Virus record (IMG/VR): IMGVR_UViG_3300021976_000009
Strand: one strand, 5' to 3'
Source of the DNA: an uncultured virus (IMG/VR IMGVR_UViG_3300021976_000009)
Lineage: Duplodnaviria; Heunggongvirae; Uroviricota; Caudoviricetes
Length of the DNA stretch: 22,393 bases
Every line of letters starts with the position of its first letter. Position 1 is the first letter of the stretch. Positions 1-22,266 of this stretch are shown piece after piece. Below the pieces are notes generated by a model, which was not told the origin of the DNA, did not search any database, and worked only from the letters and a program-made list of their open reading frames with translations. A program made the position numbers and the translations under genes.

Positions 1-81
1 ATCATTTTCGGACTGATAGCATTGATGGTCTTCGTCTATCTCATCATTTACTATCCGCCGCAAACTACCAAGTTTCTCTAA
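1..81 (+). CDS. 3' end of a small membrane protein (partial)
   Basis: Frame 1 reads IIFGLIALMVFVYLIIYYPPQTTKFL-stop; hydrophobic TM-like stretch; start lies outside the window. Confidence 0.4.
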   Translation: MIFGLIALMVFVYLIIYYPPQTTKFL

Positions 82-140
82 TAGATTAGTTCAAACGATT
101 TCTCTAATAGATTAGTTCAAACGATTTCTCTAATAGATTA
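73..140. repeat. 26-bp tandem repeat (TTTCTCTAATAGATTAGTTCAAACGA, ~2.6 copies), each carrying TCTAATAGA
   Basis: TCTAATAGA at 77, 103 and 129 with exact 26-bp period. Confidence 0.95.
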
Positions 141-169
141 ACGTGTACTTTAACAGTAAATAGTGATTT

Positions 170-338
170 TCTAATAGATTCGAGTACCTTTAGATTAGAG
201 AATTCGTTAAGTGAAATGTTGTAATTTTGCGACATTTTATTGTTGCATAGTTCGCGCATTTATGTTACAATGATAGTGCAGGAGGCACCAGTGAGAATGG
301 ATGATTTCTCTAATCTAAAGGTACTCGAATCTATTAGA
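170..338. repeat. Perfect 33-bp inverted repeat (170-202 / 306-338) enclosing a promoter
   Basis: TCTAATAGATTCGAGTACCTTTAGATTAGAGAA and its exact reverse complement. Confidence 0.95.
243..271 (+). promoter_or_regulatory. sigma70-type promoter with extended -10
   Basis: TTGCAT (243-248), 17-bp spacer, TGn-TACAAT (266-271); AT-rich upstream; precedes the long + strand gene run. Confidence 0.7.
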
Positions 339-361
339 GAAAGTGAAAGGGGGAAAGTAAG

Positions 362-637
362 ATGGTCAAGTTCACGATCGACGAGCTACTCAATTTTAAG
401 GCGGAGGAAAAGGCAATGAGTAAGGTTATTATTCTAAAAGAGTCAGCGCCATCGGAGTGCCAGCTTTGCCATGAGGCAATTACGGATTCATTCATTGACG
501 GTCGTACTATCCAGGGTCCGTGGGGGTACATGTGCCTGAGGTGCCATCGGGAGCATGGCGTTGGACTTGGGACGGGCAAGGGCCAGATGTATGAGAAGCA
601 GGCCGAGACCGGGAATTTCATCAAAACGCAGGGTTGA
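362..637 (+). CDS. Zn-binding phage hypothetical protein
   Basis: CQLC...CLRC pairs and DGRT..GPW..MC..C....G.GLG.G.GQ.Y pattern; alternative start at 416 after GGAGG. Confidence 0.75.
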   Translation: MVKFTIDELLNFKAEEKAMSKVIILKESAPSECQLCHEAITDSFIDGRTIQGPWGYMCLRCHREHGVGLGTGKGQMYEKQAETGNFIKTQG

Positions 638-645
638 GTCAATTC

Positions 646-697
646 GCCAGGGACGGCAACCTTACCCGGCATGATGCCATTTCTATTAGAGAAAGTT
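646..697 (+). promoter_or_regulatory. Leader cassette: GGA-loop hairpin + TCTATTAGA + GAAAGTT
   Basis: GCC-AGGGAC-GGC (646-657); second small hairpin GGCA-TGA-TGCC; TCTATTAGA 682-690. Confidence 0.6.
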
Positions 698-717
698 CAA
701 TTACGGAGTTCAGTCTA

Positions 718-936
718 ATGCCTTTCGAGTTCACAGCCGCCGAAGTGAAAAGTTTCCAGATGAGTTACGACGAGTTCGAGCGGCTCATGATCGACACCGG
801 CATGGATGCCGATATGGTCGAGGCTCTCGTAATCTGGATGGGTATGGCCGATCAGCCTATGCTCAACATGGCCGAGATCATGCAGCGAATGGGTGGACTG
901 GTTTTTACTCAGCCTGACATCCAGATCATTGATTAA
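718..936 (+). CDS. Hypothetical protein (likely paralogue of next gene)
   Basis: GGAG before ATG 718; the 634 start in the ORF track runs through the leader cassette. Confidence 0.65.
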   Translation: MPFEFTAAEVKSFQMSYDEFERLMIDTGMDADMVEALVIWMGMADQPMLNMAEIMQRMGGLVFTQPDIQIID

Positions 937-946
937 GGAAAGTTAG

Positions 947-1159
947 ATGAAAAGTAACCTCTCGTTAGCTAATGACGTTGATCATCACCTGATCAAGTCC
1001 GTCTTCATGACGAAGGAAGAGGTGAACGCCCTCTTGAAAGAGGACGGCTTTACTGACACCACGCTCCAGTATTTCTGGCAGCGTCTCAACTATCCTGAGG
1101 GGAGTCCGGTTTCTATCTCGATCTTGATCCAAAACCTCGCCTCACTCGCCACGTTTTGA
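947..1159 (+). CDS. Hypothetical protein
   Basis: AAGGAAAG RBS-like element, tight packing. Confidence 0.7.
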   Translation: MKSNLSLANDVDHHLIKSVFMTKEEVNALLKEDGFTDTTLQYFWQRLNYPEGSPVSISILIQNLASLATF

Positions 1160-1171
1160 GTGAGCCTACCC

Positions 1172-1202
1172 GCCAGGGATGGCAAATCTACTAGAGAAAG
1201 TT
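1172..1202 (+). promoter_or_regulatory. Leader cassette: GGA-loop hairpin + TCTACTAGA + GAAAGTT
   Basis: GCC-AGGGAT-GGC-AAA-TCTACTAGA-GAAAGTT just before ATG 1206. Confidence 0.65.
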
Positions 1203-1205
1203 ACA

Positions 1206-2674: not shown

Positions 2675-2704
2675 GTGCAGTGCAGTGCAGTGCAGTGCAG
2701 TGCA
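2675..2704. repeat. Pentanucleotide microsatellite (GTGCA)6
   Basis: Six perfect copies directly upstream of the helicase. Confidence 0.95.
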
Positions 2705-2750
2705 AGTTTCGCTACTAGAGTTTCTAAACGAGTACCGGAGATACGGTCAG

Positions 2751-4304
2751 ATGCACAATGCGACGCCGCAACAGTTCGATTTCTATCGCTGGTTAGATCA
2801 GGGCCAGGGCAATGCAGTCCTGGAAGCGGTTGCCGGGAGTGGCAAGACCACTTCCATTATCGAGGGTCTCAACTACATTGATGACGTGGAGCCGGTCCTG
2901 CTTTGCTCGTTCACGAAGTTGATTGCAACGGAATTGCAACGTCGTGCCCAGGAAGCCAATTTCAGAAACGTTACGTCGACAACGCTTAACGCCCTCGGGT
3001 GGGGCGTGTGTCGGCGGAACGTGTCCGGAGTCCAGTTAGATCAGTACAAGACGGAGAATATTCTCCAGTGGCAGATTGATAATCAGCAGCGGTATTCCGG
3101 GTTAGACCCCAAGAAAATCTTTCAAAGCTTGAGGGGTCCAGTTAAGAAATTGGTGGGCTTGCTGAAAGCCTACGTTGTCACAGGAAACATCATTGAGCGT
3201 GCCGAGGAAATCGCCGCTTATCATAGTGTAGACTTGCCGGAGGGCAATACGAAAGAGGCTCAGTTCGCTCGTGAAACTCTATACGAGAAAGTGGTCTCCG
3301 TTTACCTCCAGAGCAACGAAGTCACGTCCATGATGGACTATGACGACATGAAGTTCATGCCCGTGTACTATAAGTGGGATGTTCCCAAGTACAAATGGGT
3401 GATCGTCGATGAGGTCCAGGATGTCAATGCATGTGATATCGCATTGATCGAGAAGTTGCATATGGCAGGTCGTGCTCGGGTCGTAGGAGTGGGCGACCGC
3501 ATGCAGGCCATCTATCTGTTCAGGGGAGCACTGAACGATGCGATGGAGATTTTCCAGAAACAGTTCGATGCCGTCCAAATGCCACTTACGGTATGTTGGC
3601 GATGCCCAGCCGCCATCATTGAGGAAGGAAAGAAAACCAACCCCGCCATTGAAGGTCCTGTCCCCAATCCCAAAGGTGATGGGATCGTCCGTACCGTTGA
3701 GACTCTTGAGTTTCTGGAGCAGGTTCGTATCGGCGACTTTGTTATCTGCCGCACTACTGCTCCTCTTGTTAAGCGGTGTCTCAAGTTGGTTCAGAATGGA
3801 ATCCCCGCCAAGGTTAAGGGACGAGAGGTGGGACGATCTCTTCTGGCCGTGATCGACAAGGTGATCGGGAGGATGCCAAAGTTCGATGGAGCAGCTAATG
3901 CTTCTCTATTAGAGTTCGTTGCGGAGCTAAGTAACTATAAGGTGGAAACGGTCGCCAATCTAGAGGCAATGAAACGTGAAGACTCGGCGATCCGTGTACA
4001 GGACGAATGCGAAGCACTGGAATACTTCTGCATGGAAGCGTATAACGTTGACGGAGTTGCGAACCGGATTAATACTCTGTTTACGGACGATCAGGACGAC
4101 GCTGCCATTGTATTGTTCCTCACGGGCCACAAGTGTAAGGGTCTACAAAATCCGAGGGTATGGTTCCTGCGACCAGACCTTTGCCCGCATCCGAAGGCTG
4201 CACAGCCACATGAGCAGGATCAGGAAATCCATATCCGCCACATCATCGTGACACGAGCGGAAAAGGAACTGGTCTTCGTGAACAAGGAAAAGGATGAAAA
4301 GTAA
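2751..4304 (+). CDS. UvrD/Rep-family superfamily 1 DNA helicase
   Basis: AVAGSGKTT (Walker A), IVDEVQD (II), VGDRMQAIYLFRGA (III), WRCP (IV), HKCKGLQ (V), VTRAEKEL (VI); ATG 2751 follows GGAG (in-frame GTG at 2685/2700 possible). Confidence 0.93.
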   Translation: MHNATPQQFDFYRWLDQGQGNAVLEAVAGSGKTTSIIEGLNYIDDVEPVLLCSFTKLIATELQRRAQEANFRNVTSTTLNALGWGVCRRNVSGVQLDQYKTENILQWQIDNQQRYSGLDPKKIFQSLRGPVKKLVGLLKAYVVTGNIIERAEEIAAYHSVDLPEGNTKEAQFARETLYEKVVSVYLQSNEVTSMMDYDDMKFMPVYYKWDVPKYKWVIVDEVQDVNACDIALIEKLHMAGRARVVGVGDRMQAIYLFRGALNDAMEIFQKQFDAVQMPLTVCWRCPAAIIEEGKKTNPAIEGPVPNPKGDGIVRTVETLEFLEQVRIGDFVICRTTAPLVKRCLKLVQNGIPAKVKGREVGRSLLAVIDKVIGRMPKFDGAANASLLEFVAELSNYKVETVANLEAMKREDSAIRVQDECEALEYFCMEAYNVDGVANRINTLFTDDQDDAAIVLFLTGHKCKGLQNPRVWFLRPDLCPHPKAAQPHEQDQEIHIRHIIVTRAEKELVFVNKEKDEK

Positions 4305-4324: not shown

Positions 4325-4358
4325 GGCTCAGGGATGAGCCAATTCTATTAGAGAAAGT
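4325..4358 (+). promoter_or_regulatory. Leader cassette: GGA-loop hairpin + TCTATTAGA + GAAAGT
   Basis: GGCTC-AGGGAT-GAGCC-AAT-TCTATTAGA-GAAAGT. Confidence 0.7.
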
Positions 4359-4367: not shown

Positions 4368-4613
4368 ATGGAAAATCGAGTTTACATGATCAAGTTACAT
4401 GACGAGTTAGCGGTCCTAGTTAACGAAGGGAAAATTACAGTCAGTCACGCCTATATTATTTGCCGTCTCCCACCTGAGAAGCAGATCGAGTTTAAAAGCC
4501 AGTTATTAGCTATGGCTGTGAAGTTCAAGGAAGTTCAGGCCGAGTCCGCATTGTTAGAGGAGTGTGTACGCACGTTAGTTGATGATTCTCACCGACTAGG
4601 GAAAGTTGAATAA
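4368..4613 (+). CDS. Small protein resembling the ParB/Spo0J central DNA-binding region
   Basis: LHDELAVLVNEGKITVSHAYIICRLPPEKQ resembles ParB LP.EV...L..G.IS.GHA..L..L....Q. Confidence 0.55.
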   Translation: MENRVYMIKLHDELAVLVNEGKITVSHAYIICRLPPEKQIEFKSQLLAMAVKFKEVQAESALLEECVRTLVDDSHRLGKVE

Positions 4614-4918
4614 TGCAAGCTGCATATTGCCATTACATTCTCATGGAAGAGGAGGGCATTGACCTTGAGCAAAATTTTCATATTCCTGCCCTGATCGCTT
4701 TACACAGGGAAGAACTGTTCACAGATGAAAAGGACAAGGAAATCCTTTCCGCGATCAAAGCAAATCCGGAGGGCGGCATAATAGTCGTTCAGCCGGGTAT
4801 ACAGGTTCGTTGGTTCACTATGCCAGCTCACACAAACGTGAAGGAAGCTAAGTATAACTATCCTCGTTTCACGCTAATGGTTGAAGACGAGGGAGCAAAG
4901 AAATCAAAACTCTATTAG
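4613..4918 (+). CDS. Hypothetical protein
   Basis: TAATG coupling to previous gene. Confidence 0.7.
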   Translation: MQAAYCHYILMEEEGIDLEQNFHIPALIALHREELFTDEKDKEILSAIKANPEGGIIVVQPGIQVRWFTMPAHTNVKEAKYNYPRFTLMVEDEGAKKSKLY

Positions 4919-5627: not shown

Positions 5628-5870
5628 GTGAATAAAACTTTTATTGGAACAGTTACGCCAGCTTTGCAAATGAAATTGATGATTCAAGCAGCACAAACAT
5701 ACAACAAACCGATTAGAGTAACTAGGGACGGAGACAAAGCGACTTATCGAGTTGACGATTTACGTGGTGATACTTATGTCACCACGTTTGATGGAGTAAA
5801 TCGTATGATCATGGATGAATTACTGAGTCATTTACGCTGCCCAATTGACTCTATTAGAATAGAGGAATAG
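5628..5870 (+). CDS. Hypothetical protein
   Basis: GAGGAG RBS, GTG start. Confidence 0.7.
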   Translation: MNKTFIGTVTPALQMKLMIQAAQTYNKPIRVTRDGDKATYRVDDLRGDTYVTTFDGVNRMIMDELLSHLRCPIDSIRIEE

Positions 5871-6011: not shown

Positions 6012-6201
6012 TTAGTCCCGCTTTTACACTCCACAGTGAGCAGGTTGCATGGGTAAACGGGGCTAAGCTAGGACTGGACATGCAAACCTAGGTATCTTGG
6101 ATTGGCGTCAGGTGATCGTACATATATCCAAGAGCCGAATAACTAACGACACCAGATCAGTAGTCGATTATGAAGCTCAGCAATCGACATTGATCACTGT
6201 G
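6012..6201 (+). ncRNA. Putative structured ncRNA with pseudoknots
   Basis: No good + strand ORF; stems 6012-20/6058-66, 6068-72/6087-91, 6095-102/6126-33, 6163-69/6182-88; crossing pairings 6045-51/6079-85 and 6032-39/6194-201. Confidence 0.5.
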
Positions 6202-6234
6202 CTCAGGGATGAGCAATAGAGCAAATCTAATAGA
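6200..6234 (+). promoter_or_regulatory. Leader cassette: GGA-loop hairpin + TCTAATAGA
   Basis: TGCTC-AGGGAT-GAGCA; TCTAATAGA 6226-6234. Confidence 0.65.
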
Positions 6235-6282
6235 AAATGGCCGCGTAGCGGCAATAGAAAATGGCCGCGTAGCGGCAATAGA
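6229..6282. repeat. 24-bp tandem duplication with GCCGC-GTA-GCGGC hairpin
   Basis: AATAGAAAATGGCCGCGTAGCGGC x2 plus AATAGA. Confidence 0.95.
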
Positions 6283-6297
6283 GAAAGTGAGAATGTT

Positions 6298-6534
6298 ATG
6301 GGTCGTAAGAAGCATAGTGAAAAGTTCATTATCAAGGTTCAGATTTCTCTTAATCCTCCTGATGGGAGTGTCTGTCTCATTTATAATGAGGATAAGAGTG
6401 TGCATGATCAAATGCCAACGCCTAGAGAGTTGCCATTACTTTTACGTGGTCGCAAGAAAGGTTATTTCTGGGCAACCAGGACACCTGATGGCGTTGTAAC
6501 GATTGTTAATGGTGCTCGTGATCAGGAGTGGTAA
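6298..6534 (+). CDS. Hypothetical protein
   Basis: Follows GAGAAAGTGAG leader. Confidence 0.7.
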   Translation: MGRKKHSEKFIIKVQISLNPPDGSVCLIYNEDKSVHDQMPTPRELPLLLRGRKKGYFWATRTPDGVVTIVNGARDQEW

Positions 6535-7037: not shown

Positions 7038-7417
7038 CGAAAGTTGAACAGTTTCATTTTCAGCGACGAATGTTCGCATTGCCCTATAACATCATTAAGC
7101 TTGCTCCTAAAGGAGATTTACGTTCCCACGCCGAATGGTTATGGGACGAACTTCACTTTGACAGATCATGCTTGAGAGGATTCATTGATCCAACCGGATT
7201 ATATTTTTACCGTACCAAGGATTGCAAAGCTCTCAAAGGAGATTGGGAAAGGGTCAAGTGTGCCATAATAATCTTGATAGTGAGTGGTCAATTGGATATT
7301 GATCCATTATTACCAGTTTACTCGGGAATGATTCCCGGGAAGCATGGGGAACGATGGGAACCTCGACATAAGCTCGGGGTTATACGTAGTCTTATCCCAA
7401 TGGTAGAACTACTATGA
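7034..7417 (+). CDS. Hypothetical protein
   Basis: ATGA overlap. Confidence 0.7.
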   Translation: MTKVEQFHFQRRMFALPYNIIKLAPKGDLRSHAEWLWDELHFDRSCLRGFIDPTGLYFYRTKDCKALKGDWERVKCAIIILIVSGQLDIDPLLPVYSGMIPGKHGERWEPRHKLGVIRSLIPMVELL

Positions 7418-7650
7418 TCAGGACGTATGTCGGTAGAGTGAACAACCGCCGAGTTGAAATTCGTGGAGAAACTCTAATAGACGCAATGGAGCGAGCAGGA
7501 TATATTCCTCGCACTAAAGCAACTAGCACGGGACGTATCCTGGGCATATTGTCAACGGGACAGCGATACACTTTCAGGATCGCACCCGATAGCAGTTTTC
7601 ATAAGCCAGTTACCAATGACAAACATCCATCTCAGGATCATGACCGATGA
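7414..7650 (+). CDS. Hypothetical protein
   Basis: ATGA overlap. Confidence 0.65.
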   Translation: MIRTYVGRVNNRRVEIRGETLIDAMERAGYIPRTKATSTGRILGILSTGQRYTFRIAPDSSFHKPVTNDKHPSQDHDR

Positions 7651-7820: not shown

Positions 7821-8051
7821 ATGAAAATTAATCCCGCACAGTTGCATTTTATTGGATGGCGTATTCGGCCCAGTTACGTCAATCAATTACTCATTGATTC
7901 TATTAGAGAAGAGGGTCAACGAGTACCAATTAGAGTTAGACCGAAAGGAAAAAGTTATGTATTTAATGATGGCATGTGTCGAGTGGCCACATGCATCATT
8001 CTCGGGATTGATGTTGAGTGCATACTAATTGACAATGATCAGCTTCTATGA
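7821..8051 (+). CDS. Stand-alone ParB N-terminal (ParBc/Srx-like) domain protein
   Basis: LIDSIREEGQRVPIRVR....Y...DGMCRV....LG matches ParBc L..SI...G...PI.V......Y...DG..R......LG. Confidence 0.7.
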   Translation: MKINPAQLHFIGWRIRPSYVNQLLIDSIREEGQRVPIRVRPKGKSYVFNDGMCRVATCIILGIDVECILIDNDQLL

Positions 8052-8782: not shown

Positions 8783-8942
8783 GTGGGAAGTTTGGTTCAT
8801 GACCCCTTTTGGGCTCATCGCTGATTTGCAGGAGGCGAATCAGCGATGTATAGACAACGATATGAATCCTAATCAGGTCGTCTCCCCGGTGCCTGTTGCA
8901 TTGGACAGTGACGAACGTTACGAAGTTATCTTACGAGGATGA
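8724..8942 (+). CDS. Hypothetical protein
   Basis: GAGGAAG upstream. Confidence 0.65.
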   Translation: MFNLTERTLIFGGKTLPIVKWEVWFMTPFGLIADLQEANQRCIDNDMNPNQVVSPVPVALDSDERYEVILRG

Positions 8943-8943
8943 A

Positions 8944-9294
8944 ATGGGTCCGGAATATACCAAGGGTACACCTACTTTAAGAGAGAAACTCAATATCATG
9001 TTAGATGATGTTGAGATTACTCCGGAACAAAAAGCTATCATTATCGGGAGGATAATGGGCCTTACCCGTCCAGGGACGAATGACATTGTTCATCAGATCG
9101 GTCCCAATGGATTCCATCGGTTAGTAATCAGTGGAGAGAAATCTCCCTGGTCTCCTCAAACAGATATCATCAGGGTGGGTGATATCGTAGCATCGACCGA
9201 TGCATACATTAACCTACTTCCACAGGTAGGTAGGGTGTACGCTTTCAAAGGAAAAGATTTCCGAACAGAATCTGTCCAAACTCTAATAGACTAA
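8944..9294 (+). CDS. Hypothetical protein
   Basis: GAGGA before ATG 8944. Confidence 0.65.
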   Translation: MGPEYTKGTPTLREKLNIMLDDVEITPEQKAIIIGRIMGLTRPGTNDIVHQIGPNGFHRLVISGEKSPWSPQTDIIRVGDIVASTDAYINLLPQVGRVYAFKGKDFRTESVQTLID

Positions 9295-9312: not shown

Positions 9313-9618
9313 ATGGAAGTTCCGGATAAGTTACTTGAGATGGCAGTGAAAGCTTATGGCGAGAGTGTACGCCAAACATGGAAACAGGGCGGTCGGAAAC
9401 CGAAACTCTATAAGAAAACCCAGGAGCAAAAGATAGTCGACAAGACCGTGCTGACTACATACCTGGATATTCTTTCCAGAGTATTTGATGTCACAGGAGG
9501 ATTATTCACTTTGATGGAGATGGCGGAAAAATCGAAAATTATCAATGAATCCGGAAAGCATTGCGACGATCCTTATCCGGTTGAAATGGACAAACTTATA
9601 GTGAAAGGGAAAGGCTAA
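9313..9618 (+). CDS. Hypothetical protein
   Basis: AGGGAG RBS. Confidence 0.7.
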   Translation: MEVPDKLLEMAVKAYGESVRQTWKQGGRKPKLYKKTQEQKIVDKTVLTTYLDILSRVFDVTGGLFTLMEMAEKSKIINESGKHCDDPYPVEMDKLIVKGKG

Positions 9619-11324: not shown

Positions 11325-11482
11325 ACGCTTTAATGTTTGGTCTCGTTCTCGGTACCGGATTTATAATTGGTTGGTTGGCAAGAATTTATGGAGAAATACG
11401 AGAACGTGATGCAAAATCTATTAGAGAAGAGGATGACGCTTACCAGAACGAATTACCCATGGACCAAGAGGACTTTTACTAA
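11321..11482 (+). CDS. Small single-TM protein
   Basis: GGAGG RBS, ATGA overlap; MNALMFGLVLGTGFIIGWLA. Confidence 0.65.
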   Translation: MNALMFGLVLGTGFIIGWLARIYGEIRERDAKSIREEDDAYQNELPMDQEDFY

Positions 11483-11673: not shown

Positions 11674-11840
11674 AAGATATTGAAGAATATCTTCGTGAGA
11701 AAATCGCTGCCCTTGTCTATGAGGAAGAGTACGCTCAAACTCAGAAAGAAATTCTTGATGAGGCTATTGTACTCTTTCCTGATCGAACTGATACCGTCTA
11801 TTTATTGTATCAAACGATAGTGGAGGAACTAACAGCATGA
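11670..11840 (+). CDS. 56-aa acidic hypothetical protein (not in ORF track)
   Basis: ATGA overlaps at both ends. Confidence 0.7.
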   Translation: MKDIEEYLREKIAALVYEEEYAQTQKEILDEAIVLFPDRTDTVYLLYQTIVEELTA

Positions 11841-12838
11841 GGATACCTACATACCTTTCGCCAAGTGCCATTGCAAAATGGGAAACTTCGGTGGAGGGAT
11901 TCTATCTCCATTATTTAACGGATAATCCACCACCAAGGGAGCAACAAAATCAGGCGATGGCGATTGGATCATCCTTCGATGCCTATGTCAAAGCCTTTTT
12001 GCATGAGAAGTTGTTCGGCAAAAGTCACACTGACTCTAATAGATTCGGATTACGTGCGTTGCTTGAGGCTCAAGTGGAGCCGCAACATCGCGATTGGGCA
12101 AAACGCCACGGATTGTACGCTTTCCAGGTATATCAATCTTCCGGAGCACTGTTAGATTTACTTTCGGACCTTCAGGCGGCTCAAAAGGAACCACGTTTTG
12201 AATTTGAAGTAAAGGGACAGGTTGACGGCTATCGTGAAGGTGTTATGAAGGAGATGGAGGGCGTCATCTTCCTTGGCAAACCTGATGCCGCCTATATCAA
12301 TCGGGATGGGAAACATATCATCCTGGATTGGAAAGTGAATGGGTATTGTTCAAATTACGCTACGTCACCTAAGCCTGGATATGTTCGTCTCCGTGGTATG
12401 GGTGGTCGCAGTTGGGGAATGCACAAAGGCTGTTCTCCAATGGAAATTGGCGGAATCACTGTCAATATCGCCTCGACTTTGGAGCATTGTGATGAGGGAT
12501 GGGCTCGGCAACTTGCCATCTATGGTTGGCTTTGCGATGAGCCCGTTGGAAGTGATTTCATCGTAGCCATTGATCAATTGAGTTGTAAGCCTTCCGGAAT
12601 GGCTGACATTCCTCCGGAGATCAGGGTAGCGGAACATCGTATACGTATTGGAAAAGAGTATCAATTCAAGGTGTTCAATAGAGCAAAAGAAATCTGGTCC
12701 ATTATTAAAAGTGGACATATTTTCAGACAGATGAGTGAGGGAGATTCCAAGGCACGTTGTCAGTTACTAGATCAACAGGCCGAAGAACTTTACGGCCCTA
12801 ACGCCGATAGTGATTTCCTGGAAATGACTCGGCGATAA
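11837..12838 (+). CDS. PD-(D/E)XK (RecB/Cas4-like) exonuclease
   Basis: YLSPS, GSSFD, GKPD...IILDWK, QLAIY motifs. Confidence 0.85.
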   Translation: MRIPTYLSPSAIAKWETSVEGFYLHYLTDNPPPREQQNQAMAIGSSFDAYVKAFLHEKLFGKSHTDSNRFGLRALLEAQVEPQHRDWAKRHGLYAFQVYQSSGALLDLLSDLQAAQKEPRFEFEVKGQVDGYREGVMKEMEGVIFLGKPDAAYINRDGKHIILDWKVNGYCSNYATSPKPGYVRLRGMGGRSWGMHKGCSPMEIGGITVNIASTLEHCDEGWARQLAIYGWLCDEPVGSDFIVAIDQLSCKPSGMADIPPEIRVAEHRIRIGKEYQFKVFNRAKEIWSIIKSGHIFRQMSEGDSKARCQLLDQQAEELYGPNADSDFLEMTRR

Positions 12839-12870: not shown

Positions 12871-12896
12871 AAATCTATTAGAGAAGGGGAAATCAG

Positions 12897-13352: not shown

Positions 13353-13580
13353 ATGAAAACTCTAATAGACACGGCGACTCGTACTCCGGTACATGAAATT
13401 GCTCCGGGTGATGTATTCCAACTCGTTGAAGGAAATATTCATAACCCTCATGTGCGAATTGCAAGTAACTCACCGCACCTATCCGCAGTAGGTGGCAGAG
13501 TTTACTCTTTGCAAGGGGGTATTATTCATGAACATGATCCAGAAACGATTGTGTTCATCATGACAGTATCAAAGGCTTAA
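13353..13580 (+). CDS. Hypothetical protein
   Basis: AAAGGA RBS. Confidence 0.7.
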   Translation: MKTLIDTATRTPVHEIAPGDVFQLVEGNIHNPHVRIASNSPHLSAVGGRVYSLQGGIIHEHDPETIVFIMTVSKA

Positions 13581-13627
13581 TTCTATTAGAGTATTAGGGT
13601 ATCAAAGTTAGGAGTTAGGAGTTATCA

Positions 13628-15055: not shown

Positions 15056-15080
15056 TTATCTATTAGAGAAAGTTCGATCA

Positions 15081-15634: not shown

Positions 15635-15790
15635 ATGCAAATTGATTGGACTGAGAAAGCAATCAAGGAATTAGATATCAATAAATTACCGGATTCATTG
15701 AAGGAGCCGGTCTCAAAACTGTTGCAGGATGCAATTGCAAAACGTAATGCAATCACAAGGAAAATCTATAATGCCGACACAAAATCTTGA
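15635..15790 (+). CDS. 51-aa hypothetical protein (not in ORF track)
   Basis: GGAG upstream; MQIDWTEKAIKELDINKLPDSLK. Confidence 0.55.
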   Translation: MQIDWTEKAIKELDINKLPDSLKEPVSKLLQDAIAKRNAITRKIYNADTKS

Positions 15791-16652
15791 AATCAACATT
15801 GGTAATTTTTCCGTTAATCTCCTGAAACATTCCATCCAAGGGATGGGAAAGGAAGCGATCTCATTCCTGTTTACGTATGAGCGTTTCATACATGCTGAAG
15901 TAATGACTCATCGCTGGAGCCGAAACTACTCAAGTAGTCGTGCCATTCCATATAGGGATATGCAGAAGTGGATCAAAGGTGATCCGGCCCTTCCTCTCCA
16001 TATGGGAAAGAACAAGGGTGGGATGCAATCAGGCGAATTGGTACAGGAACATGAGGCATTCAAGAAATCTCTATTAGATTTTTACGATCATACCAGAGGA
16101 TGGTGTGACGGCTTGATCGAACGATTCGATCCGCACAAAGAAATCATTAATCGTTATACGGAACCTTGGGGGTGGATCACCGGAATCATGACCACTGGTC
16201 GCCGCCAACTTATGAATATGTTCAACCTTCGGATAAGTCCGATGGCTCACCCTAATATTCAAAGGTTAGCGGTGGCTATGGCCCGGCTCTATCGTCACTC
16301 TATTCCTCAAGTTTTGCAACCGGGTGAGTGGCACTTACCATTTGTATCAGATGTTAAAGGAACAGCTAATAATATTAGCTGGTCAGTGGCTAGAAGTGCA
16401 TGGTGTTCATATAACAATCCAACAAAGGATGCCACTTTGGAAAGGGCAAAGAAACGTCACGCCGATTGTATAGATTTCAAGCATGCCACTCCATTGGAAC
16501 ATCAGCTTGAAGCTCGGGCAGATAGGGCTCACACGGGATTAGTCCCGGGATATAATTCCTATCGTTCTATGATCCCTCAGGAGTGTGCCAGTGAATTTGA
16601 CTTTGGTATATTGGATAGAGAGTACAAGGATAGATGGTACGTGGTCAACTAA
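15771..16652 (+). CDS. thyX: Flavin-dependent thymidylate synthase (phage type)
   Basis: RFIHAEVMTHRWSRNYSSSRAIP (ThyX motif variant), FNLR....AHP.IQ.LA, WHLPF, SVARSA..SY, HATPLEHQ. Confidence 0.9.
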   Translation: MPTQNLEINIGNFSVNLLKHSIQGMGKEAISFLFTYERFIHAEVMTHRWSRNYSSSRAIPYRDMQKWIKGDPALPLHMGKNKGGMQSGELVQEHEAFKKSLLDFYDHTRGWCDGLIERFDPHKEIINRYTEPWGWITGIMTTGRRQLMNMFNLRISPMAHPNIQRLAVAMARLYRHSIPQVLQPGEWHLPFVSDVKGTANNISWSVARSAWCSYNNPTKDATLERAKKRHADCIDFKHATPLEHQLEARADRAHTGLVPGYNSYRSMIPQECASEFDFGILDREYKDRWYVVN

Positions 16653-16676
16653 TCTAATAGAAACGGAGAGAAAATA

Positions 16677-17096
16677 ATGGATGACAGCGCCCTCGGACTG
16701 TACAACAAGTATAGGATTTACGTTCCTGCTACATATGAGGGCGATGTTCATAACTATGATCTATGTGAATTTTTCGTTCTTGATCTTAACCATGATTGTT
16801 ATGCCTTTACCGCATTGTCAGCTTATGTTGAAGAGTGGCAAAAGGATCATCCCGAGACCCATTTCTTTCCAACAGTTCAACCTACTTTTAGAGTAGAGAG
16901 GACACGCCCATCAGCGAAACATAAAAACTGTCAATATTTCGTTCTGGACACATGCCATGATCGTTACGCCATTGCGGCACTCCGTTGTTATAAGTGGCTT
17001 TGTTTAGAAAGCGATCCCATGTTAGCGAATGACTTGATCCAGTTAATCAATCGGCACGAAGGAAAGTACAATGAGCACTGCAACGCGAAAAATTGA
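16677..17096 (+). CDS. Phage hypothetical protein with internally duplicated domain
   Basis: CEFFVLDLNHDCYAFTALSAY and CQYFVLDTCHDRYAIAALRCY. Confidence 0.75.
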   Translation: MDDSALGLYNKYRIYVPATYEGDVHNYDLCEFFVLDLNHDCYAFTALSAYVEEWQKDHPETHFFPTVQPTFRVERTRPSAKHKNCQYFVLDTCHDRYAIAALRCYKWLCLESDPMLANDLIQLINRHEGKYNEHCNAKN

Positions 17097-17298
17097 CATA
17101 GAGCTATTGAAACGGCTTTACGATGAGCAGGGATTGACAGTGGATATGCTACCTCATAGTGAACAGGAGAGACGTATCGTGGAAAGTTACAACGCTCTCA
17201 AAAATGATCATGTTACAGAACGGGAAGTCTACATCGCTTTGATGAATTTGCGAAAGCGGTCACAACTAAAGAGAAAACCATACTCCCGTGGAGGTTAG
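17071..17298 (+). CDS. Small helical, probably DNA-binding protein
   Basis: LY...G.TVD.LP.S....EVY.ALMNLRK...L; basic C-terminus. Confidence 0.65.
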   Translation: MSTATRKIDIELLKRLYDEQGLTVDMLPHSEQERRIVESYNALKNDHVTEREVYIALMNLRKRSQLKRKPYSRGG

Positions 17299-17743: not shown

Positions 17744-17773
17744 GAGCCTAATTCCTCTATTAGAGAGGGTGAA

Positions 17774-18284: not shown

Positions 18285-18866
18285 ATGTGGTATAAGCGAA
18301 GTGATGATAGAGCAATTCAACCTCGGAGAGCCCATCCATACGATGCCGGATTGGACCTTTTCGCACTGGAGGACGTTCACGTCCGTCCTGGCGAGGTCCT
18401 ACGGGTACGTACAGGTATTCATATCGCCAATTATCCTACTTCGGTAGCGTTATATTGGGATAAAAGTGGCAGAGCATCCCACGGTCTTACTATCTTGGGT
18501 GGTTGCATTGATGGTCCCTATCGTGGAGAATTGGAAATTGTCGTCGCCAACGTCAATATTCGCTCGACATTGGACTTTTTACAATTTCAAATAGAAAATC
18601 TAGTAGAGCATAGGAGCATTCCCTTAGATCGTTATGAATTTATGCTACAAAAAGTAGTAACAGCTACAGTGACAGTCCCTTACGGGAAGGCATTGACTCA
18701 GGTTTTGGTAGTAAATAGTGTCATTAACGAAAGTGATGATGCTGTACATGATCAAATTCCTGGGTTAGACTTCCCCGAGTTAAATGAACTTTCACCAAAT
18801 CAATTCGATGAGCTTTTCGGAAAGACTCTGAGAGGAGAAAAAGGCTTTAGTTCCAGTGATCAATGA
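18285..18866 (+). CDS. dut: Trimeric dUTPase with insertions
   Basis: DAGLDL (I), KSG (II), GCIDGPYRGE (III), LTQVL (IV), RGEKGFSSS (V). Confidence 0.92.
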   Translation: MWYKRSDDRAIQPRRAHPYDAGLDLFALEDVHVRPGEVLRVRTGIHIANYPTSVALYWDKSGRASHGLTILGGCIDGPYRGELEIVVANVNIRSTLDFLQFQIENLVEHRSIPLDRYEFMLQKVVTATVTVPYGKALTQVLVVNSVINESDDAVHDQIPGLDFPELNELSPNQFDELFGKTLRGEKGFSSSDQ

Positions 18867-18968: not shown

Positions 18969-19532
18969 GTGAAATTCGCTAAGGTCCTGAATCACGCTCG
19001 TCCTCCGGTTCGACTCAATCCGAATGATCCCGGCCTGACCATCTTCAGTGCCGAGGACTTCAAAGTCGAACATGGAGAAGTCCATGCCTATCGTACCGGA
19101 GTAGTGTTAGACGTTCCCGAAGGCTATTTGGGAATGTTCGTCGAAACCCAGAGCATGGGTTTCAAGGGCGTTACTGTCGCTGGAGGCGTTCTCTCGCCCA
19201 ATGACATTTCCGAGGTCAGGGTGGCTTTGATCAACTCTCATAGAGAAGCGTATGAGATCAAATCGGGAATGCCATTGGCCCAGATCATCCTTCTGAAGAA
19301 CGATGACAAGGATGATGACGCCGAAGAGGTTGATCGGGAAGAACTGACTGAGGAACTTCAGAAGCGGCGTGACGCTGCCATGAAGGAACAGAAGGTTCGT
19401 TCGGCCAAGCGTGGCGTTGACGCTGCCAAAGAAAACCTCGAACTCGCTGAAAAGAAGGCCAAGGGTGTGACCACTGAAGGTGGCAGGCCCAAGCCAAACC
19501 CGGTTCCCCCGTCCAATCCCCCGAAGCCTTGA
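18969..19532 (+). CDS. Degenerate dUTPase-fold protein with coiled-coil and Pro-rich tail
   Basis: DPGLTI, RTGV..DVPEGY.G, GGVLSPNDISE, LAQI; catalytic motifs altered, motif V absent. Confidence 0.8.
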   Translation: MKFAKVLNHARPPVRLNPNDPGLTIFSAEDFKVEHGEVHAYRTGVVLDVPEGYLGMFVETQSMGFKGVTVAGGVLSPNDISEVRVALINSHREAYEIKSGMPLAQIILLKNDDKDDDAEEVDREELTEELQKRRDAAMKEQKVRSAKRGVDAAKENLELAEKKAKGVTTEGGRPKPNPVPPSNPPKP

Positions 19533-19536: not shown

Positions 19537-19573
19537 AAAGGGAGCAAACTCTATTAGAGTTTGCTCCCTTTTT
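19537..19573 (+). terminator. Intrinsic terminator centred on TCTATTAGA
   Basis: AAAGGGAGCAAACTCTA-T-TAGAGTTTGCTCCCTTTTT. Confidence 0.8.
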
Positions 19574-19602
19574 GACGTTCCCATAGCTTGAAAGGACAGG
19601 AA

Positions 19603-19788
19603 ATGGACGAAAAGAAGGACAAGAAAACCCCTGATAAGGGTCAAAAACCTGATGTTCCGGGCGTGGATGTGCCGGATGCTGACGGCGATCAGGAAACTCT
19701 CGATCCGAAATACGCAGAGCCCAAAGGGACAAAGCATTCGGATCAGTTCAATACCCAATTTCCCGGCGAGAAAACCGTCCGGAGATAA
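19603..19788 (+). CDS. Small charged disordered protein
   Basis: GAAAGGACAGGA RBS. Confidence 0.55.
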   Translation: MDEKKDKKTPDKGQKPDVPGVDVPDADGDQETLDPKYAEPKGTKHSDQFNTQFPGEKTVRR

Positions 19789-19883
19789 CTCAGCATTGAT
19801 GAGAAAACCGTCCAGAGGTAACCCGCCAACAGGGAATGGGGCAGCGTCAGCTTACCAGTACGATCTAGCAAGGAGATGGAACG

Positions 19884-20033
19884 ATGAAAAAGGCAGGCAG
19901 CGGCATCCCGAAGATGACGAACAAGGGCATTGTCAACGGGAGCAAGGCCCAGAACAAGGGCGGCACACCGATGAAGGCTGGAACGAACCAGATGGTCGGT
20001 AAGACGGCCACCAGGATCACCAAGGTTCGGTAA
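19884..20033 (+). CDS. 49-aa basic Lys/Gly-rich peptide (not in ORF track)
   Basis: AAGGAG RBS; MKKAGSGIPKMTNKG...TATRITKVR; no acidic residues; followed by terminator. Confidence 0.6.
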   Translation: MKKAGSGIPKMTNKGIVNGSKAQNKGGTPMKAGTNQMVGKTATRITKVR

Positions 20034-20059
20034 CTCATGTTCGCAAGAGTTGCTTAACG

Positions 20060-20100
20060 AAGCCCGCCATTTGCACACGCGAATGGCGGGCTTATTTTAT
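20060..20100 (+). terminator. Intrinsic terminator ending the gene run
   Basis: AAGCCCGCCATT...AATGGCGGGCTT then ATTTTAT. Confidence 0.85.
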
Positions 20101-20275
20101 GTTACTTTTTACCCTGGATTCGAGGGCGTTAGAACACAGTTTAATCTAATAGAGTTTCTTGCGTCCGCGTAGCTGTAATAGAATCTCTTGTACTTTGCTT
20201 CTTAGTAGCTTAGCGTGTTTTGCGAAACGCCGTAAATCACGATCTCAAAAAAGGCATTTAGCAGCATATATTTGG

Positions 20276-20772
20276 CACGTTTTTTGGGCCAAATTTGTGC
20301 CACGCTCTAGGAGGCCGGTAGAGCCACGGGAAGGGCTTTGGCATGGATCGTTCCTTTCGCTGCTCGCGCGTGCTTGCGCTACCCCTTCACGGCAATGCGC
20401 TACCCCATTGCGTGACATGGGAGCGGGCTGGCCAGGCTGGGAATGGGGCCATTTGCATGAACATTTGGATACGCTTTACGCAAGTCCTTACCCCGTCAGG
20501 GTTTGCAATACTAATAACGTTAGCTCGTATACCTTCTTACAATATCTTATTACTATTACTACTATTTCCATACAAAGAATGGTGAAAAGCATTAGAGTTA
20601 AGCATTGGAAACCCTTACAGGGTAACGACTTTGTGTCATATAAACAAACACAGTTGTTATAGGATCTAACCAATAAATTAGTTATATCCCCCAAATTATA
20701 CTCGTTATCACACAATATTGTTGCAACGTGAATTTGGGTAGGTATTGGCACAATTTTGGCCCAGAAAACGTG
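20276..20772. repeat. 27-bp inverted repeat pair (20276-20302 / 20746-20772), 25/27 identical
   Basis: CACGTTTTTTGGGCCAAATTTGTGCCA vs revcomp CACGTTTTCTGGGCCAAAATTGTGCCA. Confidence 0.85.
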
Positions 20773-21125
20773 AAACTCTACATTGAAATAAAGCCTTTTC
20801 CCCAGATTCGCCATTCTAAAATCGCCATTTCAAAAACGGCATTTCGAAATTCTACATGAATATAGGATATTGCATACATGAATATAGTATATATAGATTA
20901 TAAATTTTACAAAATTTGGAGTAAAATAAAGTTACGGAGTTACCTACGGACACTAATATAAATTAATACACCACTGGTTACTTCGCTGCTCTTTTGTTAC
21001 ATGAATACGAATCAATATCTTACCCACTATATGGAATCAAATGTACAAAACGCTGTGTACTCTAATAGAGTAAAACTATATCTATACACAATGTGAGTAT
21101 AATATGTATCTATATAGATATACTT

Positions 21126-21213
21126 CTACCACCTACCCTACCCTACCACCTACCCTATCACCTACCCTACCACTTACCCCTGCCCACTTACCCCTGCCCA
21201 CTTACCCACCACC
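21126..21213 (-). repeat. C-rich short repeats (CCTAC / CCACTTACCCCTGC); G-quadruplex motif on the minus strand
   Basis: Minus strand contains GGGTAAGTGGGCAGGGGTAAGTGGGCAGGGG and GGGTA repeats. Confidence 0.85.
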
Positions 21214-21574
21214 ATGAAATCTGATAGAAAAAATGATCCACCCTGGTCGCAGACACGAGATATGAGCCAAAGGCCCTCAGAACATACCCCTTCCAAAGCC
21301 CTTTCTACAGGTACCCAAATTAAGCGCAAAATTTGAACATATGTTTATACGTTCACGCGTAGGGCTCTGGGTTTATTGACGTATGTTTATATGAACCGAA
21401 TTTTAGGCGTTTTTTCGGCACCCTAATTTTAGAGTTTTCGGCGAAAAGGCCAGTTGGACAGCCCGGTTTTGAAAAAATCTACTAGATTTTTCGAAAATTC
21501 GGAGGAAAAAAGTTCACTTGATGGTGTGGACGCACACTGTGTGAACGGGAAAACCGCCAAAAAAAGTTGGGCTG

Positions 21575-22135
21575 GCCCAACTTTTGGTTTTGGCCGCCCC
21601 CGACCCAAAGTTTTGGTCGCCCAAAATCTTTTTTTCGGTCGGCCCCTGCCCAAAGAAAATGTTTGGGCGACCGAAACCTTCGACCACCCAAACTTGAGGT
21701 TTTGGTCGCCCAAAATCTTTTTTGAGGGAGGCCCACGCCTAAAGAAAATGTTTGGGCGACCAAAACTTTGGACCACCCTCAACCCAAATCGAAAGTTTGG
21801 GCGACCGAAACTTTGGATCGCCCTCAACCCAAATCGAAAGTTTGGGCGGCCAAAAGTTTTGGTCGTCCAAAAATCTGATAGAGTTTTTGCCCTCCCGAAA
21901 CTTTGGACCACCCTCAACCCAAATCGAAAGTTTGGGCGGCCGAAACTTTGGACCACCCTCAACCCAAATCGAAAGTTTGGGCGACCGAAACTTTGGATCG
22001 CCCTCAACCCAAATCGAAAGTTTGGGCGACCGAAAGTTTTGGTCGTCCAAAAATCTGATAGAGTTTTTGCCCTCCCGAAACTTGAGGCCCGCCCCTCTCC
22101 AAATCGAAAATTTGGGCGGCCAAAACTTTTGGACG
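21575..22135. repeat. 45-bp higher-order tandem repeat rich in inverted motifs
   Basis: Units from 21760 at exact 45-bp period, order A1-A2-B-A1-A1-A2-B-C; diverged 90-bp dimers upstream; TTTGGGCGACC and its complement GGTCGCCCAAA. Confidence 0.92.
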
Positions 22136-22142
22136 GCCCATC

Positions 22143-22237
22143 CCAAATGGCCAAATGGCCAAATCGACCAAATGGCCAAAGTGCCAAAGTGCCAAAGTGC
22201 CAAAGTGCCAAATCGACCAAATGGCCAAATGACCAAA
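22143..22237. repeat. Octamer repeats (TGGCCAAA / GTGCCAAA)
   Basis: About 11 CCAAA-ending units, (GTGCCAAA)4 perfect. Confidence 0.92.
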
Positions 22238-22266
22238 TCTAATAGAGTCAGCTGCACTCATGCACG

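Follow-up and report, generated by a model that had tools for sequence, protein, structure and literature searches.

The DNA analysed here is the whole 22,393-nt stretch of IMG/VR record IMGVR_UViG_3300021976_000009 from an uncultured virus (the window; 45% G+C, with phage early and DNA-metabolism genes, all on the + strand), and it carries a real and strongly non-random network of the 9-bp palindrome TCTAWTAGA (W is A or T). We give a probability of about one half to the reading that a dimeric phage protein binds or loads at these palindromes, the likeliest candidate being one of two orphan ParB-type proteins predicted in related phages. A pattern search of the window returned 29 exact TCTAWTAGA copies, all at the starts listed by an earlier model that had only the letters to go on (the sequence-only reading), and recovered the four copies with C or G (S) at the centre that it had placed at 1187, 2269, 18599 and 21478. 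Its estimate of less than one chance TCTAWTAGA copy per window was upheld by 100 dinucleotide-preserving shuffles, which gave a mean of 0.20 and a maximum of 2 copies (mean 0.09 for TCTASTAGA); for all centre bases together, TCTANTAGA, the whole-sequence total is 33 versus 0.30 expected. The excess also withstood a codon-aware null model, in which synonymous codons were shuffled 500 times among 52 hand-picked + strand window open reading frames (ORFs): 16 TCTANTAGA copies lie in coding sequence versus a mean of 0.43 (maximum 4), and TCTAWTAGA alone has 13 versus 0.30. The half-site spacing is strict, in that TCTA-N1-TAGA is present 33 times, other spacings 0 to 1 times each and the reversed TAGA-N-TCTA not at all in the window, and one-mismatch variants are enriched just ~2.5-fold (20 versus 8.1).

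The bases around the 9-mer extend its symmetry. In the window the base at −1 is C in 16 copies and A in 8, G being absent, and that at +1 is G in 15 and T in 8; A or T is found almost without exception at −2 and +2 in the 29 window sites; C is rare at −3 and G at +3 in these and in 58 sites of a related contig, G003 (below), whose copies have the same flank pattern. The symmetric flanks make the site a 15-bp palindrome, WWC-TCTA-N-TAGA-GWW, in which the inner 9 bp are nearly invariant and the centre base prefers W. This 15-bp palindrome, derived from 29 + 58 sites, falls within the ~13-16 bp of a ParB-type site and is what a two-fold symmetric DNA-binding protein would read. The centre base on the coding strand is T in 16 copies and A in 13, so the site has no orientation relative to genes, and as RNA the TCTA-N-TAGA core would form a stem of 3-4 bp at most. 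The sites are also more evenly spread than chance allows: the coefficient of variation of the gaps between all 33 TCTANTAGA copies in the window is 0.59 versus 0.96 when sites are placed at random (P = 0.0004), no gap exceeds 1636 nt (2668 nt expected for the longest), and the centre-S variants occupy the would-be longest gaps. The corresponding values in G003 are 0.62 versus ~0.97 (P < 0.0002), with a longest gap of 2157 nt. Site density is ~1.3 to 1.5 copies/kb, with a median spacing of 0.6 to 0.7 kb and a maximum near 2 kb.

Megablast found no close relative of the window in the phage collection, and its helicase reached at most 31% identity by tblastn in that collection and had no relative in viral_contigs or metagenome_contigs. 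A 30-nt pattern from the arms of an inverted repeat near the left end of the window (below) had no match in metagenome_contigs, and a 35-nt string from the adjoining tandem array had no match; a 19-nt pattern from the arms had a sole match in viral_contigs, G003, an IMG/VR contig of 49.7 kb that CheckV estimates to be 54% complete. The left arm is ~90% identical to G003 42622-42663 and the right arm 95% identical to G003 42621-42661. G003 has 58 W and 6 S copies across its full length (64 versus 0.67 expected), compared with one occurrence of a control pattern, and 43 TCTANTAGA copies inside genes versus 0.77 after synonymous shuffling. Thirty-eight of its 58 W copies are inside genes, each gene longer than 1.5 kb has one to three internal copies (by reading of the site list), and copies are present in all modules, late structural genes included. 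G003 is siphophage-like, with TerL, portal, major head protein and tape measure on one strand, and its early modules comprise a leftward one with a DUF5906 primase and a rightward one that starts with a ParB protein.

A further related IMG/VR phage contig, L330, has 15 copies in 18.5 kb and a TerL 73% identical to that of G003. The two align over 10.9 kb with 62.6% of nucleotides identical. Of the sites in this alignment, 7 of the 11 in L330 and 7 of the 15 in G003 face a TCTANTAGA in the other genome, column for column; all eight arm positions would be retained by chance in ~2% of sites. Flanking identity at the kept sites is 0.55 to 0.75, and their centre base changes from A to G or from T to C. 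Such retention at orthologous columns despite divergence indicates that the motif is under purifying selection as DNA, with some turnover, and conservation in related phages, one of the checks proposed by the sequence-only reading (for synonymous sites), holds at these columns. As an observation apart, TCTAGA (XbaI-type, containing CTAG) is wholly absent from the 22.4-kb window and the 49.7-kb G003, in which TCTA-N-TAGA occurs 33 and 64 times.

The window ligase (36-46% identity) and nuclease (29-48%) link the window to TerL relatives of G003, which are nearly without TCTANTAGA (0 to 1 copy) but carry other dense palindromes, as follows:

G009: GATT-N5-AATC, 41 copies in 36 kb, 41% G+C
G010: GATT-N5-AATC, 45 copies in 68 kb, 53% G+C
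G016: GATT-N5-AATC, 32 copies in 78 kb, 35% G+C
G011: GATT-N4-AATC and GATT-N5-AATC, 52 + 28 copies in 56 kb
G012: TGAT-N6-ATCA, 40 copies in 35 kb
G013: GAT-N6-ATC, 138 copies in 55 kb
G008: TAGT-N7-ACTA, 18 copies in 33 kb

Shuffle controls on the relatives' palindromes gave 26 seen versus 1.25 shuffled, 27 versus 0.63, 19 versus 0.62 and 11 versus 0.56, and as a negative control each of 324 unrelated loci (L001-L232, L236-L327) has at most 3 GATT-N5-AATC copies. The trait is that of a family of siphophage-like environmental phages, with a separate palindrome for each lineage. Of the sites in the GAT-type genomes 78 to 94% are intragenic, which is about the coding fraction, and there is no start-codon excess; sites that are intragenic without start-codon bias point to a family function independent of gene structure, and this argues against promoters, translation signals and classical roadblocks. 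The presence of the same motif at 35%, 41% and 53% G+C, together with different motifs in close relatives, further indicates that the reader is encoded by the phage and not by the host. A structural-module relative, G014, has a weaker and ambiguous excess of GCTG-N3-CAGC (21 copies versus 0 to 5 at other spacings). Two other candidates were rejected, AAGANTCTT in G008 as a false lead (10 copies versus 4 for the control) and AATAATATT in L335 as the product of a repeated peptide.

In G003 as in G010 there are two proteins whose ParB_N and HTH_ParB domains score over the Pfam thresholds. Orthologues of ParB1 are found in seven genomes (G003 with G008, G009, G010, G011, G013 and G016; 37-41% identity) and those of ParB2 in five (G003 with G010, G011, G013 and G016), every one of them combining ParB_N with HTH_ParB; the contigs that have no ParB orthologues are 18 to 58% complete, and all records but perhaps G010 are incomplete. 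The gene order is conserved as primase, divergent region, ParB1, two unknown genes, SNF2 helicase, ParB2 and family A polymerase. The best PDB matches of G003 ParB1 (L235:2714-3790) and ParB2 (L235:8519-9400) are Noc and ParB/Spo0J structures (E 1.5e-10 and 4.6e-17). The nucleotide-binding boxes of ParB2 are canonical and invariant in 5/5 orthologues (AGFRRF and NLxENxxRxDLN, the CTP-binding GxRR box and ENxxR box), and those of ParB1 are degenerate (DGLHRF/DGLQRY and ANxHxIETKP). A ParA/CbiA-type domain was not found among the scanned ORFs (36 in G003, 52 in G010 and 56 in the window), so these are orphan ParBs, a class that the excerpted text of a 2025 survey (PMC12704722) describes as frequent on mobile elements and uncharacterised. 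In five of the seven genomes the 1.2 kb upstream of parB1 holds more sites than expected (seen/expected: G003 6/1.5, G008 6/0.7, G009 5/1.4, G011 4/1.7 and G013 7/3.0); that stretch is also the early regulatory region, so the cluster there is not specific evidence for ParB. For the neighbouring primase, phages that differ in motif share 49 to 54% identity.

The ParB recognition helices vary with motif class in a set of 66 ParB2-encoding loci, a strong 4+4 palindrome being present at 34 of them; one of the two probes with which these loci were fetched was the helix pattern S[RQ][GK]WVQ[IV]R, so helix diversity is under-sampled. The ParB2 helix starts with SRGWVQ in four GAT-type proteins and with SQKWVQ in G003. 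Among the 34 strong-palindrome loci 33 are of GAT or ATTT types, 27 of those 33 having the helix SRGW[VI]Q[VI]R, and the single TCTA-type locus has SQKWVQIR; loci with helices outside the SRGW pattern are mostly 57 to 62% G+C and have no strong 4+4 palindrome. The ParB1 helix is KST[SA]WI[AG]GR in 4/4 GATG-N4-CATC loci, and Pro is found at its position 3 in 8/11 GATT-N5 loci versus 0/9 N4 loci. With relatedness ignored, pairs of ParB2 proteins share a motif class in 55/147 cases when their helices are the same versus 24/414 when they differ, and for ParB1 the values are 8/8 versus 71/520.

In the mechanism that we favour, a symmetric (dimeric) phage-encoded protein would read WWC-TCTA-N-TAGA-GWW as double-stranded DNA. 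Its likely identity would be ParB1 and/or ParB2, encoded beside the divergent early regulatory region where sites cluster, and by analogy with ParB/parS, Noc/NBS (Noc-binding sites) and KorB/OB we infer that a ParB is the reader and that its dimers bind or load at each palindrome and then spread. With sites no more than ~2 kb apart, spreading would cover the entire phage chromosome, and the cluster bracketing the early promoter region may serve autoregulation or temporal control. The sequence-only reading had proposed a dimeric phage protein that coats the genome, and symmetry, even spacing, orthologous conservation and lineage-specific replacement all fit such a protein, the binding itself being predicted. 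Among the three analogies it offered, parS-like loading sites fit best, in that the two ParB_N+HTH_ParB proteins of the relatives adjoin the site cluster and their helices vary with motif class, and membership of the window in the ParB/parS kind is plausible. The self-marking signal that it also suggested is a possibility. The mycobacteriophage stoperator analogy fails, since stoperators are asymmetric 13-bp sites predominantly oriented with transcription (excerpt of PMC6550527) and the site here is symmetric.

In the window the sites and the features near them are arranged as listed below; gene calls are heuristic picks from ORF lists, and start-codon distances depend on them. Named genes come from the Pfam/PHROGs scan, and "motif" is TCTAWTAGA:

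73-150: 26-bp-unit tandem array (TTTCTCTAATAGATTAGTTCAAACGA; 2 exact and 1 partial copy), motifs at 77, 103 and 129
167-205: left arm of the inverted repeat (39 nt), motif at 170-178, direct-repeat variant TAGATTAGA 12 nt further
243-271, + strand: candidate sigma-70-like promoter, TTGCAT-17 nt-TACAAT, read by eye between the inverted-repeat arms
303-341: right arm of the inverted repeat (39 nt), motif at 330-338, ATG 362 23 nt on
682-690: motif (centre T) in ORF 634-936, frame 0 (S-I-R)
1187-1195: centre-C variant TCTACTAGA at the 5' end of ORF 1179-1487, alternative ATG 10 nt on
2269-2277: centre-G variant within the coordinates of ORF 2114-2365
2685-4304, + strand: UvrD-type helicase gene
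3905-3913: motif in the helicase gene, frame 2 (L-L-E)
4344-4352: intergenic motif, hairpin GGCTCAGGGATGAGCC ahead, ATG 4368 15 nt on
4368-4613, + strand: ParB-derived mini-protein of 81 amino acids, corresponding to the rear part of the ParB DNA-binding domain, behind the recognition helix
4911-4919: motif overlapping the stop codon of ORF 4613-4918, ATG 4939 19 nt on
5850-5858: motif in ORF 5628-5870, stop 12 nt on
6226-6234: motif in ORF 6209-6499, at the start of a 24-bp tandem repeat (6229-6282)
7473-7481: motif in ORF 7414-7650, frame 2
7821-8051, + strand: ParB_N-like mini-protein of 76 amino acids
7899-7907: motif in the ParB_N-like mini-protein ORF, frame 0
9282-9290: motif at the end of ORF 8896-9294, ATG 9313 22 nt on
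9618-10688, + strand: ATP-dependent DNA ligase gene
10157-10165: motif in the ligase gene, frame 2
10861-10869: motif at the end of ORF 10688-10897, ATG 10884 14 nt on
11417-11425: motif in ORF 11216-11482, frame 0
11837-12838, + strand: PD-(D/E)XK nuclease gene
12035-12043: motif in the nuclease gene, frame 0 (S-N-R)
12874-12882: intergenic motif, TTG 12897 14 nt on
13361-13369: motif in ORF 13353-13580, frame 2
13582-13590: intergenic motif, ATG 13628 37 nt on
15059-15067: intergenic motif, ATG 15081 13 nt on
15729-16652, + strand: thyX gene
16070-16078: motif in the thyX gene, frame 2
16653-16661: intergenic motif abutting the thyX stop, ATG 16677 15 nt on
17756-17764: intergenic motif, ATG 17774 9 nt on
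18599-18607: centre-G variant within the coordinates of dUTPase-fold ORF 18285-18866
19540-19573, + strand: putative terminator-like hairpin, GGGAGCAAAC-motif (19550-19558)-GTTTGCTCCC, then TTTTT, 3' of ORF 18969-19532
20145-20153: motif, TTG 20159 5 nt on
21061-21069: motif in the repeat-rich, non-coding right end; the flanking bases complete an 11-bp palindrome, CTCTAATAGAG
21478-21486: centre-C variant in the repeat-rich right end
22238-22246: motif at the end of the CCAAATGG repeat array

The copies that the sequence-only reading had seen inside the helicase (3905), ligase (10157), nuclease (12035) and thyX (16070) genes are real and in frame, and the clustering it saw near the promoter holds as well, with five copies (77, 103, 129, 170 and 330) flanking the promoter-like region. 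Thirteen of the 29 W copies are in ORFs, five in frame 0 (S-I/N-R) and eight in frame 2 (L-L/I-D/E), and the third frame of TCTAWTAGA holds a stop codon. Ten of the 29 sit 5 to 23 nt upstream of a start codon, the recurrent arrangement being TCTATTAGAGAAAG, a Shine-Dalgarno sequence and then ATG (330, 4344, 15059 and others). The intergenic share of TCTANTAGA is 17/33 in the window and 22/64 in G003; the higher intergenic share of TCTAWTAGA arises at least partly because the built-in stop codons close one of three frames per strand. The arms of the inverted repeat are 95% complementary and 97 nt apart, and the promoter scan itself listed just one candidate there, on the minus strand (297-270). 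The hairpin at 19540-19573 was read from the motif's flanks, since its loop is longer than the 8 nt to which the hairpin scan was limited.

The two mini-ORFs stem from different parts of ParB, and a motif copy lies before or inside each. The 81-residue fragment matches positions 39-94 of Pfam HTH_ParB (21.4 bits, under the 22.6 cutoff) and positions 132-189 of the family profile (E 8.6e-12), and its similarity to the DNA-binding domain of G003 ParB1 (37% identity, E 4e-9) is the sole protein similarity between window and G003. A His is shared by this fragment and G003 ParB1 alone, six other ParB1 sequences having Asn, which indicates that the fragment derives from a ParB1 of the TCTA lineage. 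The 76-residue protein matches phrog_6218 (E 4.5e-4) and family profile positions 31-79 (E 6.8e-4). Both mini-ORFs could be remnants, or small modulators of full-length ParB. The sequence-only reading had named 4368-4613 and 17071-17298 as candidate binders; the first is ParB-derived, but all that it has of the DNA-binding domain lies behind the recognition helix, and the second has no DNA-binding signature detectable by Pfam scan or PDB sequence search. PDB sequence searches with 17071-17298 and 362-637 gave nothing usable.

Several findings weigh against a ParB protein as the reader. The 22-kb window has no intact ParB, both of its fragments lack the helix-turn-helix by the family profile, and the ParB1-SNF2-ParB2-PolA module is absent between the window's regulatory region and its ligase gene. 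Despite this, the motif density of the window is the highest seen for TCTA-N-TAGA, and the ratio of one-mismatch to exact copies is alike in window (20:33) and G003 (38:64); as there is no motif decay relative to G003, the reader would be encoded elsewhere in the genome of the window phage, or would not be a ParB. The half-site spacing varies from N1 to N7 among lineages, which is awkward for one conserved dimer geometry, and the invariant core is just 9 bp, narrower than the 13-16 bp of known ParB sites. G010 and G016 have no site excess upstream of parB1, 32 of the 66 ParB2 loci have no strong 4+4 palindrome, and G014 has no ParB in its 51 kb, yet GCTG-N3-CAGC is weakly in excess there. Finally, the co-variation statistics include near duplicates (L398-L401) in addition to ignoring relatedness.

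The absence of an intact ParB from the window would suit an operator or roadblock network, in which a small dimeric non-ParB repressor binds every copy and, much like stoperator repressors, silences or times transcription as it blocks RNA polymerase at gene boundaries and inside genes. So would the start-proximal copies (10/29 in the window; 15/64 in G003 with a start codon within 40 nt), the five copies that bracket the promoter-like region, two of them in the 39-nt inverted-repeat arms, and the change of motif between relatives, as stoperators co-evolve with repressors (excerpt of PMC6550527). We nonetheless consider it unlikely: sites of the GAT-type relatives are 78 to 94% in genes without start-codon bias, long genes hold 1 to 3 internal copies at roughly kilobase spacing, the TCTAWTAGA intergenic excess is explicable by its own stop codons, G010 has direct terminal repeats, and the ORFs scanned (56 in the window; 36 by Pfam and 48 by PHROGs in G003; 52/84 in G010) yielded no domain of repressor-like, integrase or other lysogeny type. 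A little less likely again is recognition by a phage DNA-modifying or nicking enzyme (methyltransferase, hypermodifying enzyme or nickase), the copies being marks or interruptions in virion DNA. The short strict palindromic core with a free centre base does resemble a type II recognition site, and the genes of the window include those for a ligase, a PD-(D/E)XK nuclease, ThyX and two proteins of the dUTPase fold (one of them ORF 18285-18866); we know of no reason, though, for enzyme targets to be ~100-fold enriched and evenly spaced, and the scanned window, G003 and G010 ORFs contain no DNA methyltransferase, TET/JBP dioxygenase or HNH nickase domain. ParB-fold proteins can activate phage DNA-modifying enzymes, such as ParB-dependent T-dioxygenases (excerpt of PMC13229309), and ParB-methyltransferase fusions are described as common in phages (excerpt of PMC12704722), but the ParBs in the PMC13229309 excerpt have no DNA-binding domain and ParB1 and ParB2 carry HTH_ParB.

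The sites might instead be replication signals at which the conserved DUF5906 primase-helicase or the SNF2 helicase would load or prime, with the iteron-like 26-bp repeats at 73-150 as an origin and the dispersed copies re-priming. A palindrome functions on both strands, the sites cluster in the divergent region beside the primase and ParB genes (G003, G008 and G009), and the 0.6 to 0.7 kb median and ~2 kb maximum spacing are within the range of bacterial Okazaki fragments. We regard this as improbable, however, given that the primase is so similar between phages of different motif; we also know of no precedent for 9-15-bp palindromic priming sites, and no search for one was made. A host-determined signal accumulated by the phage (Chi-like, uptake-sequence-like or a host nucleoid protein site) is very improbable. 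Its ~1/kb density, even spacing, frame preference and placement in a terminator hairpin resemble uptake sequences, and Chi-rich phages exist (excerpt of PMC12315714), but GATT-N5-AATC is found in family members of 35%, 41% and 53% G+C, which are unlikely to share a host, and the motif changes along the phage phylogeny. A scan for three clustered copies in genome_contigs (one genome per species, 185,579 species) found only tandem arrays, no relative and no tblastx similarity; this is weak evidence against a host signal because an evenly spaced host motif would escape the pattern. Just as improbable is a gene-expression signal, either a promoter element that a phage sigma factor recognises or, ahead of start codons, a signal acting in the RNA or in translation, despite the recurrent TCTATTAGAGAAAG, Shine-Dalgarno and ATG arrangement and a sigma-like protein of G003 with a weak Sigma70_r4_2 match (19.8 bits, under the 25.7 cutoff). 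Against it stand the perfectly symmetric flanks, the 13 of 29 copies inside genes and both centre orientations (T 16, A 13), the G003 copies in late structural and all other modules, the lack of start-codon bias in GAT-type relatives and the 3-4 bp limit of any RNA stem.

Among known systems the RK2 plasmid, which has about a dozen OB sites, comes close to the ParB reading; the present counts are 33 sites in the 22-kb window and 64 in the 50 kb of G003, where two thirds are intragenic. Its ParB-family CTPase clamp KorB, a global repressor with long-range action, loads at the palindromic operator OB in a CTP-dependent manner and slides up to 1.5 kb (excerpt of PMC11790492), a distance comparable to the largest gaps here (1.6 to 2.2 kb). 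Like the sites here, OB is an odd-length palindrome with a free or degenerate centre (core TTTAGCGGCTAAA, from an oligonucleotide in the same excerpt), is dispersed in several copies on a mobile element, at and far from promoters, and is served by a ParB_N+HTH protein. No KorA-like partner was identified here, the element is a phage (direct terminal repeats in G010) and not a plasmid, and ParB binding and its CTP dependence are predicted. The Noc/NBS and ParB/parS systems are those of the best PDB matches of G003 ParB1 and ParB2. Noc binds tens of palindromic sites scattered over the chromosome, ~70 in 4 Mb and so roughly 70 times sparser than the phage sites, and parS and NBS are even-length palindromes of 16 and 14 bp; they differ from the present case in that the phage sites are evenly spaced and lineage-specific and no ParA was found here.

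Stoperators of Cluster A mycobacteriophages, which are temperate, are asymmetric 13-bp sites bound by a monomeric L5 gp71-type repressor, mostly in one orientation to transcription (excerpt of PMC6550527). They resemble the sites here in having tens of copies of a short site over a 50-kb phage genome, often at gene boundaries, and in the co-evolution of motif and binding protein among relatives (excerpts of PMC6550527 and PMC9283540); the family here likewise has many genome-wide copies of a motif that differs between related phages. The sites here are nonetheless not stoperators because they are symmetric and without orientation; at the family level they are mostly intragenic, and the scanned ORFs contain no repressor, integrase, parABS or lysogeny genes (in records that, perhaps except G010, are incomplete). 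The start-associated sequences of Cluster K phages are an asymmetric motif found solely a few bases 5' of start codons; the present motif is palindromic and intragenic in 13/29 (window) and 38/58 (G003) copies. Phage-plasmid N15, a plasmid prophage with a ParA-type ATPase, has four dispersed inverted-repeat SopB sites in different operons that affect gene expression; it too is a phage genome with dispersed inverted-repeat sites, but here there are dozens of sites, and the ParBs are orphans. In the excerpt of PMC13229309, phage ParBs without a DNA-binding domain activate a 5mYOX enzyme (a thymine dioxygenase) with 2-3-nt sequence preferences. These, too, are phage-encoded orphan ParB-fold proteins acting on phage DNA in a sequence-dependent way; in our case the scanned ORFs have no 5mYOX domain, and ParB1 and ParB2 have HTH_ParB. 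Supplements aside, we found no published account of phages whose palindromes are evenly spaced, specific to the lineage and tied to orphan ParBs, and a literature search for the 9-mer gave, among the matches listed, primers and unrelated sequences.

A wider reading, which we hold tentatively and as the less probable of the two, is that this widespread environmental family of probably virulent siphophages addresses its own chromosome by a private code, a lineage-specific palindrome recurring every 0.4 to 1.5 kb with essential genes included, that an orphan ParB pair (one member CTPase-competent, one degenerate) loads there and coats the genome, and that specificity switches between lineages like plasmid incompatibility groups. 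If so, the code could be a self/non-self mark during infection, for example in compaction, nuclease protection or competition between co-infecting relatives, and would represent a genome-wide use of the ParB clamp that is undescribed for lytic phages. Confirmation would mean that the ParB clamp-loading principle is scalable to an entire viral chromosome and that phages bear a measurable coding cost for such a code, the codons CTA, TTA, ATA, AGA and TCT being imposed on genes by the motif. Among orphan ParB-fold proteins of phages and other mobile elements, this family is a directly testable case: its predicted code is 9 to 15 bp long, each genome has dozens of natural sites, and specificity variants occur naturally (TCTA-N-TAGA, GATT-N4/5-AATC, GATG-N4-CATC and TAGT-N7-ACTA), paired with variant recognition helices. 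Such motifs are also strong lineage markers for binning and classifying uncultured phages.

The window sequence is present as contigs in four soil-metagenome runs (no RNA run was listed), and no tRNA genes were found in it. Its right end (20808-22393) is almost all tandem repeats with units of 8, 12, 14, 16, 45 and 90 bp, including a perfect 16-bp unit, TCCTCTCATATGACCA, repeated 7.9 times up to the last base, and its left end opens with the 26-bp array; this may be an entire contig that broke off at repeats, perhaps close to a genome terminus. The tandem repeat 6229-6282 in ORF 6209-6499 consists of 2.2 perfect copies of a 24-bp unit, each with the hairpin GCCGCTACGCGGC. Another short word, CAGGGATG(A)GC, in part forming the hairpin GGCTCAGGGATGAGCC, is found immediately 5' of the copies at 1187, 4344 and 6226 (1160-1186, 4325-4340 and 6200-6225).

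G003 encodes NDK and a dNMP kinase, and G010 encodes a dATP/dGTP diphosphohydrolase N-terminal domain protein (PF18909, E 1.7e-28; L355:1122-2048), an NT5C nucleotidase (L355:18321-18914) and a NYN nuclease (L355:16435-16920); such heavy reshaping of the nucleotide pool by the family may hint at non-canonical DNA. A 375-residue early protein of G003 (L234:18277-19404) has a weak, sub-cutoff match to the Acb2/Tad1 hairpin domain (E 1.7e-4) and is a possible relative of anti-CBASS or anti-Thoeris sponges.

Searches with the 14-mer TCTATTAGAGAAAG gave at least 113 matches, mostly single chance ones, and a two-copy motif pattern gave at least 119 loci, mostly unrelated tandem repeats. The CTCTAATAGATAACT sequences of G001 (L006, 4196-14209), G002 (L054) and G005 (L142), a 170-kb phage and two related contigs that turned up because the search used this 9-mer, were set aside as a separate system with no similarity to the window and no ParB1 homologue. 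Their 21-22 copies are all in the first 27-29 kb, are often paired 15-40 nt apart and flip orientation near 9.2-9.6 kb, and resemble a class of operators or promoters serving the early region of a large phage. Lastly, a ~25-nt iteron-like word, ATCGATATACTCTAATAGAACAGTCA, is present in tandem and dispersed in contigs of metagenome-assembled genomes from three phyla, namely L261 and L256 (Nitrosopumilaceae), L245 (Alphaproteobacteria) and L311 (Acidobacteriota), which suggests a shared mobile element or a mis-binned replicon.

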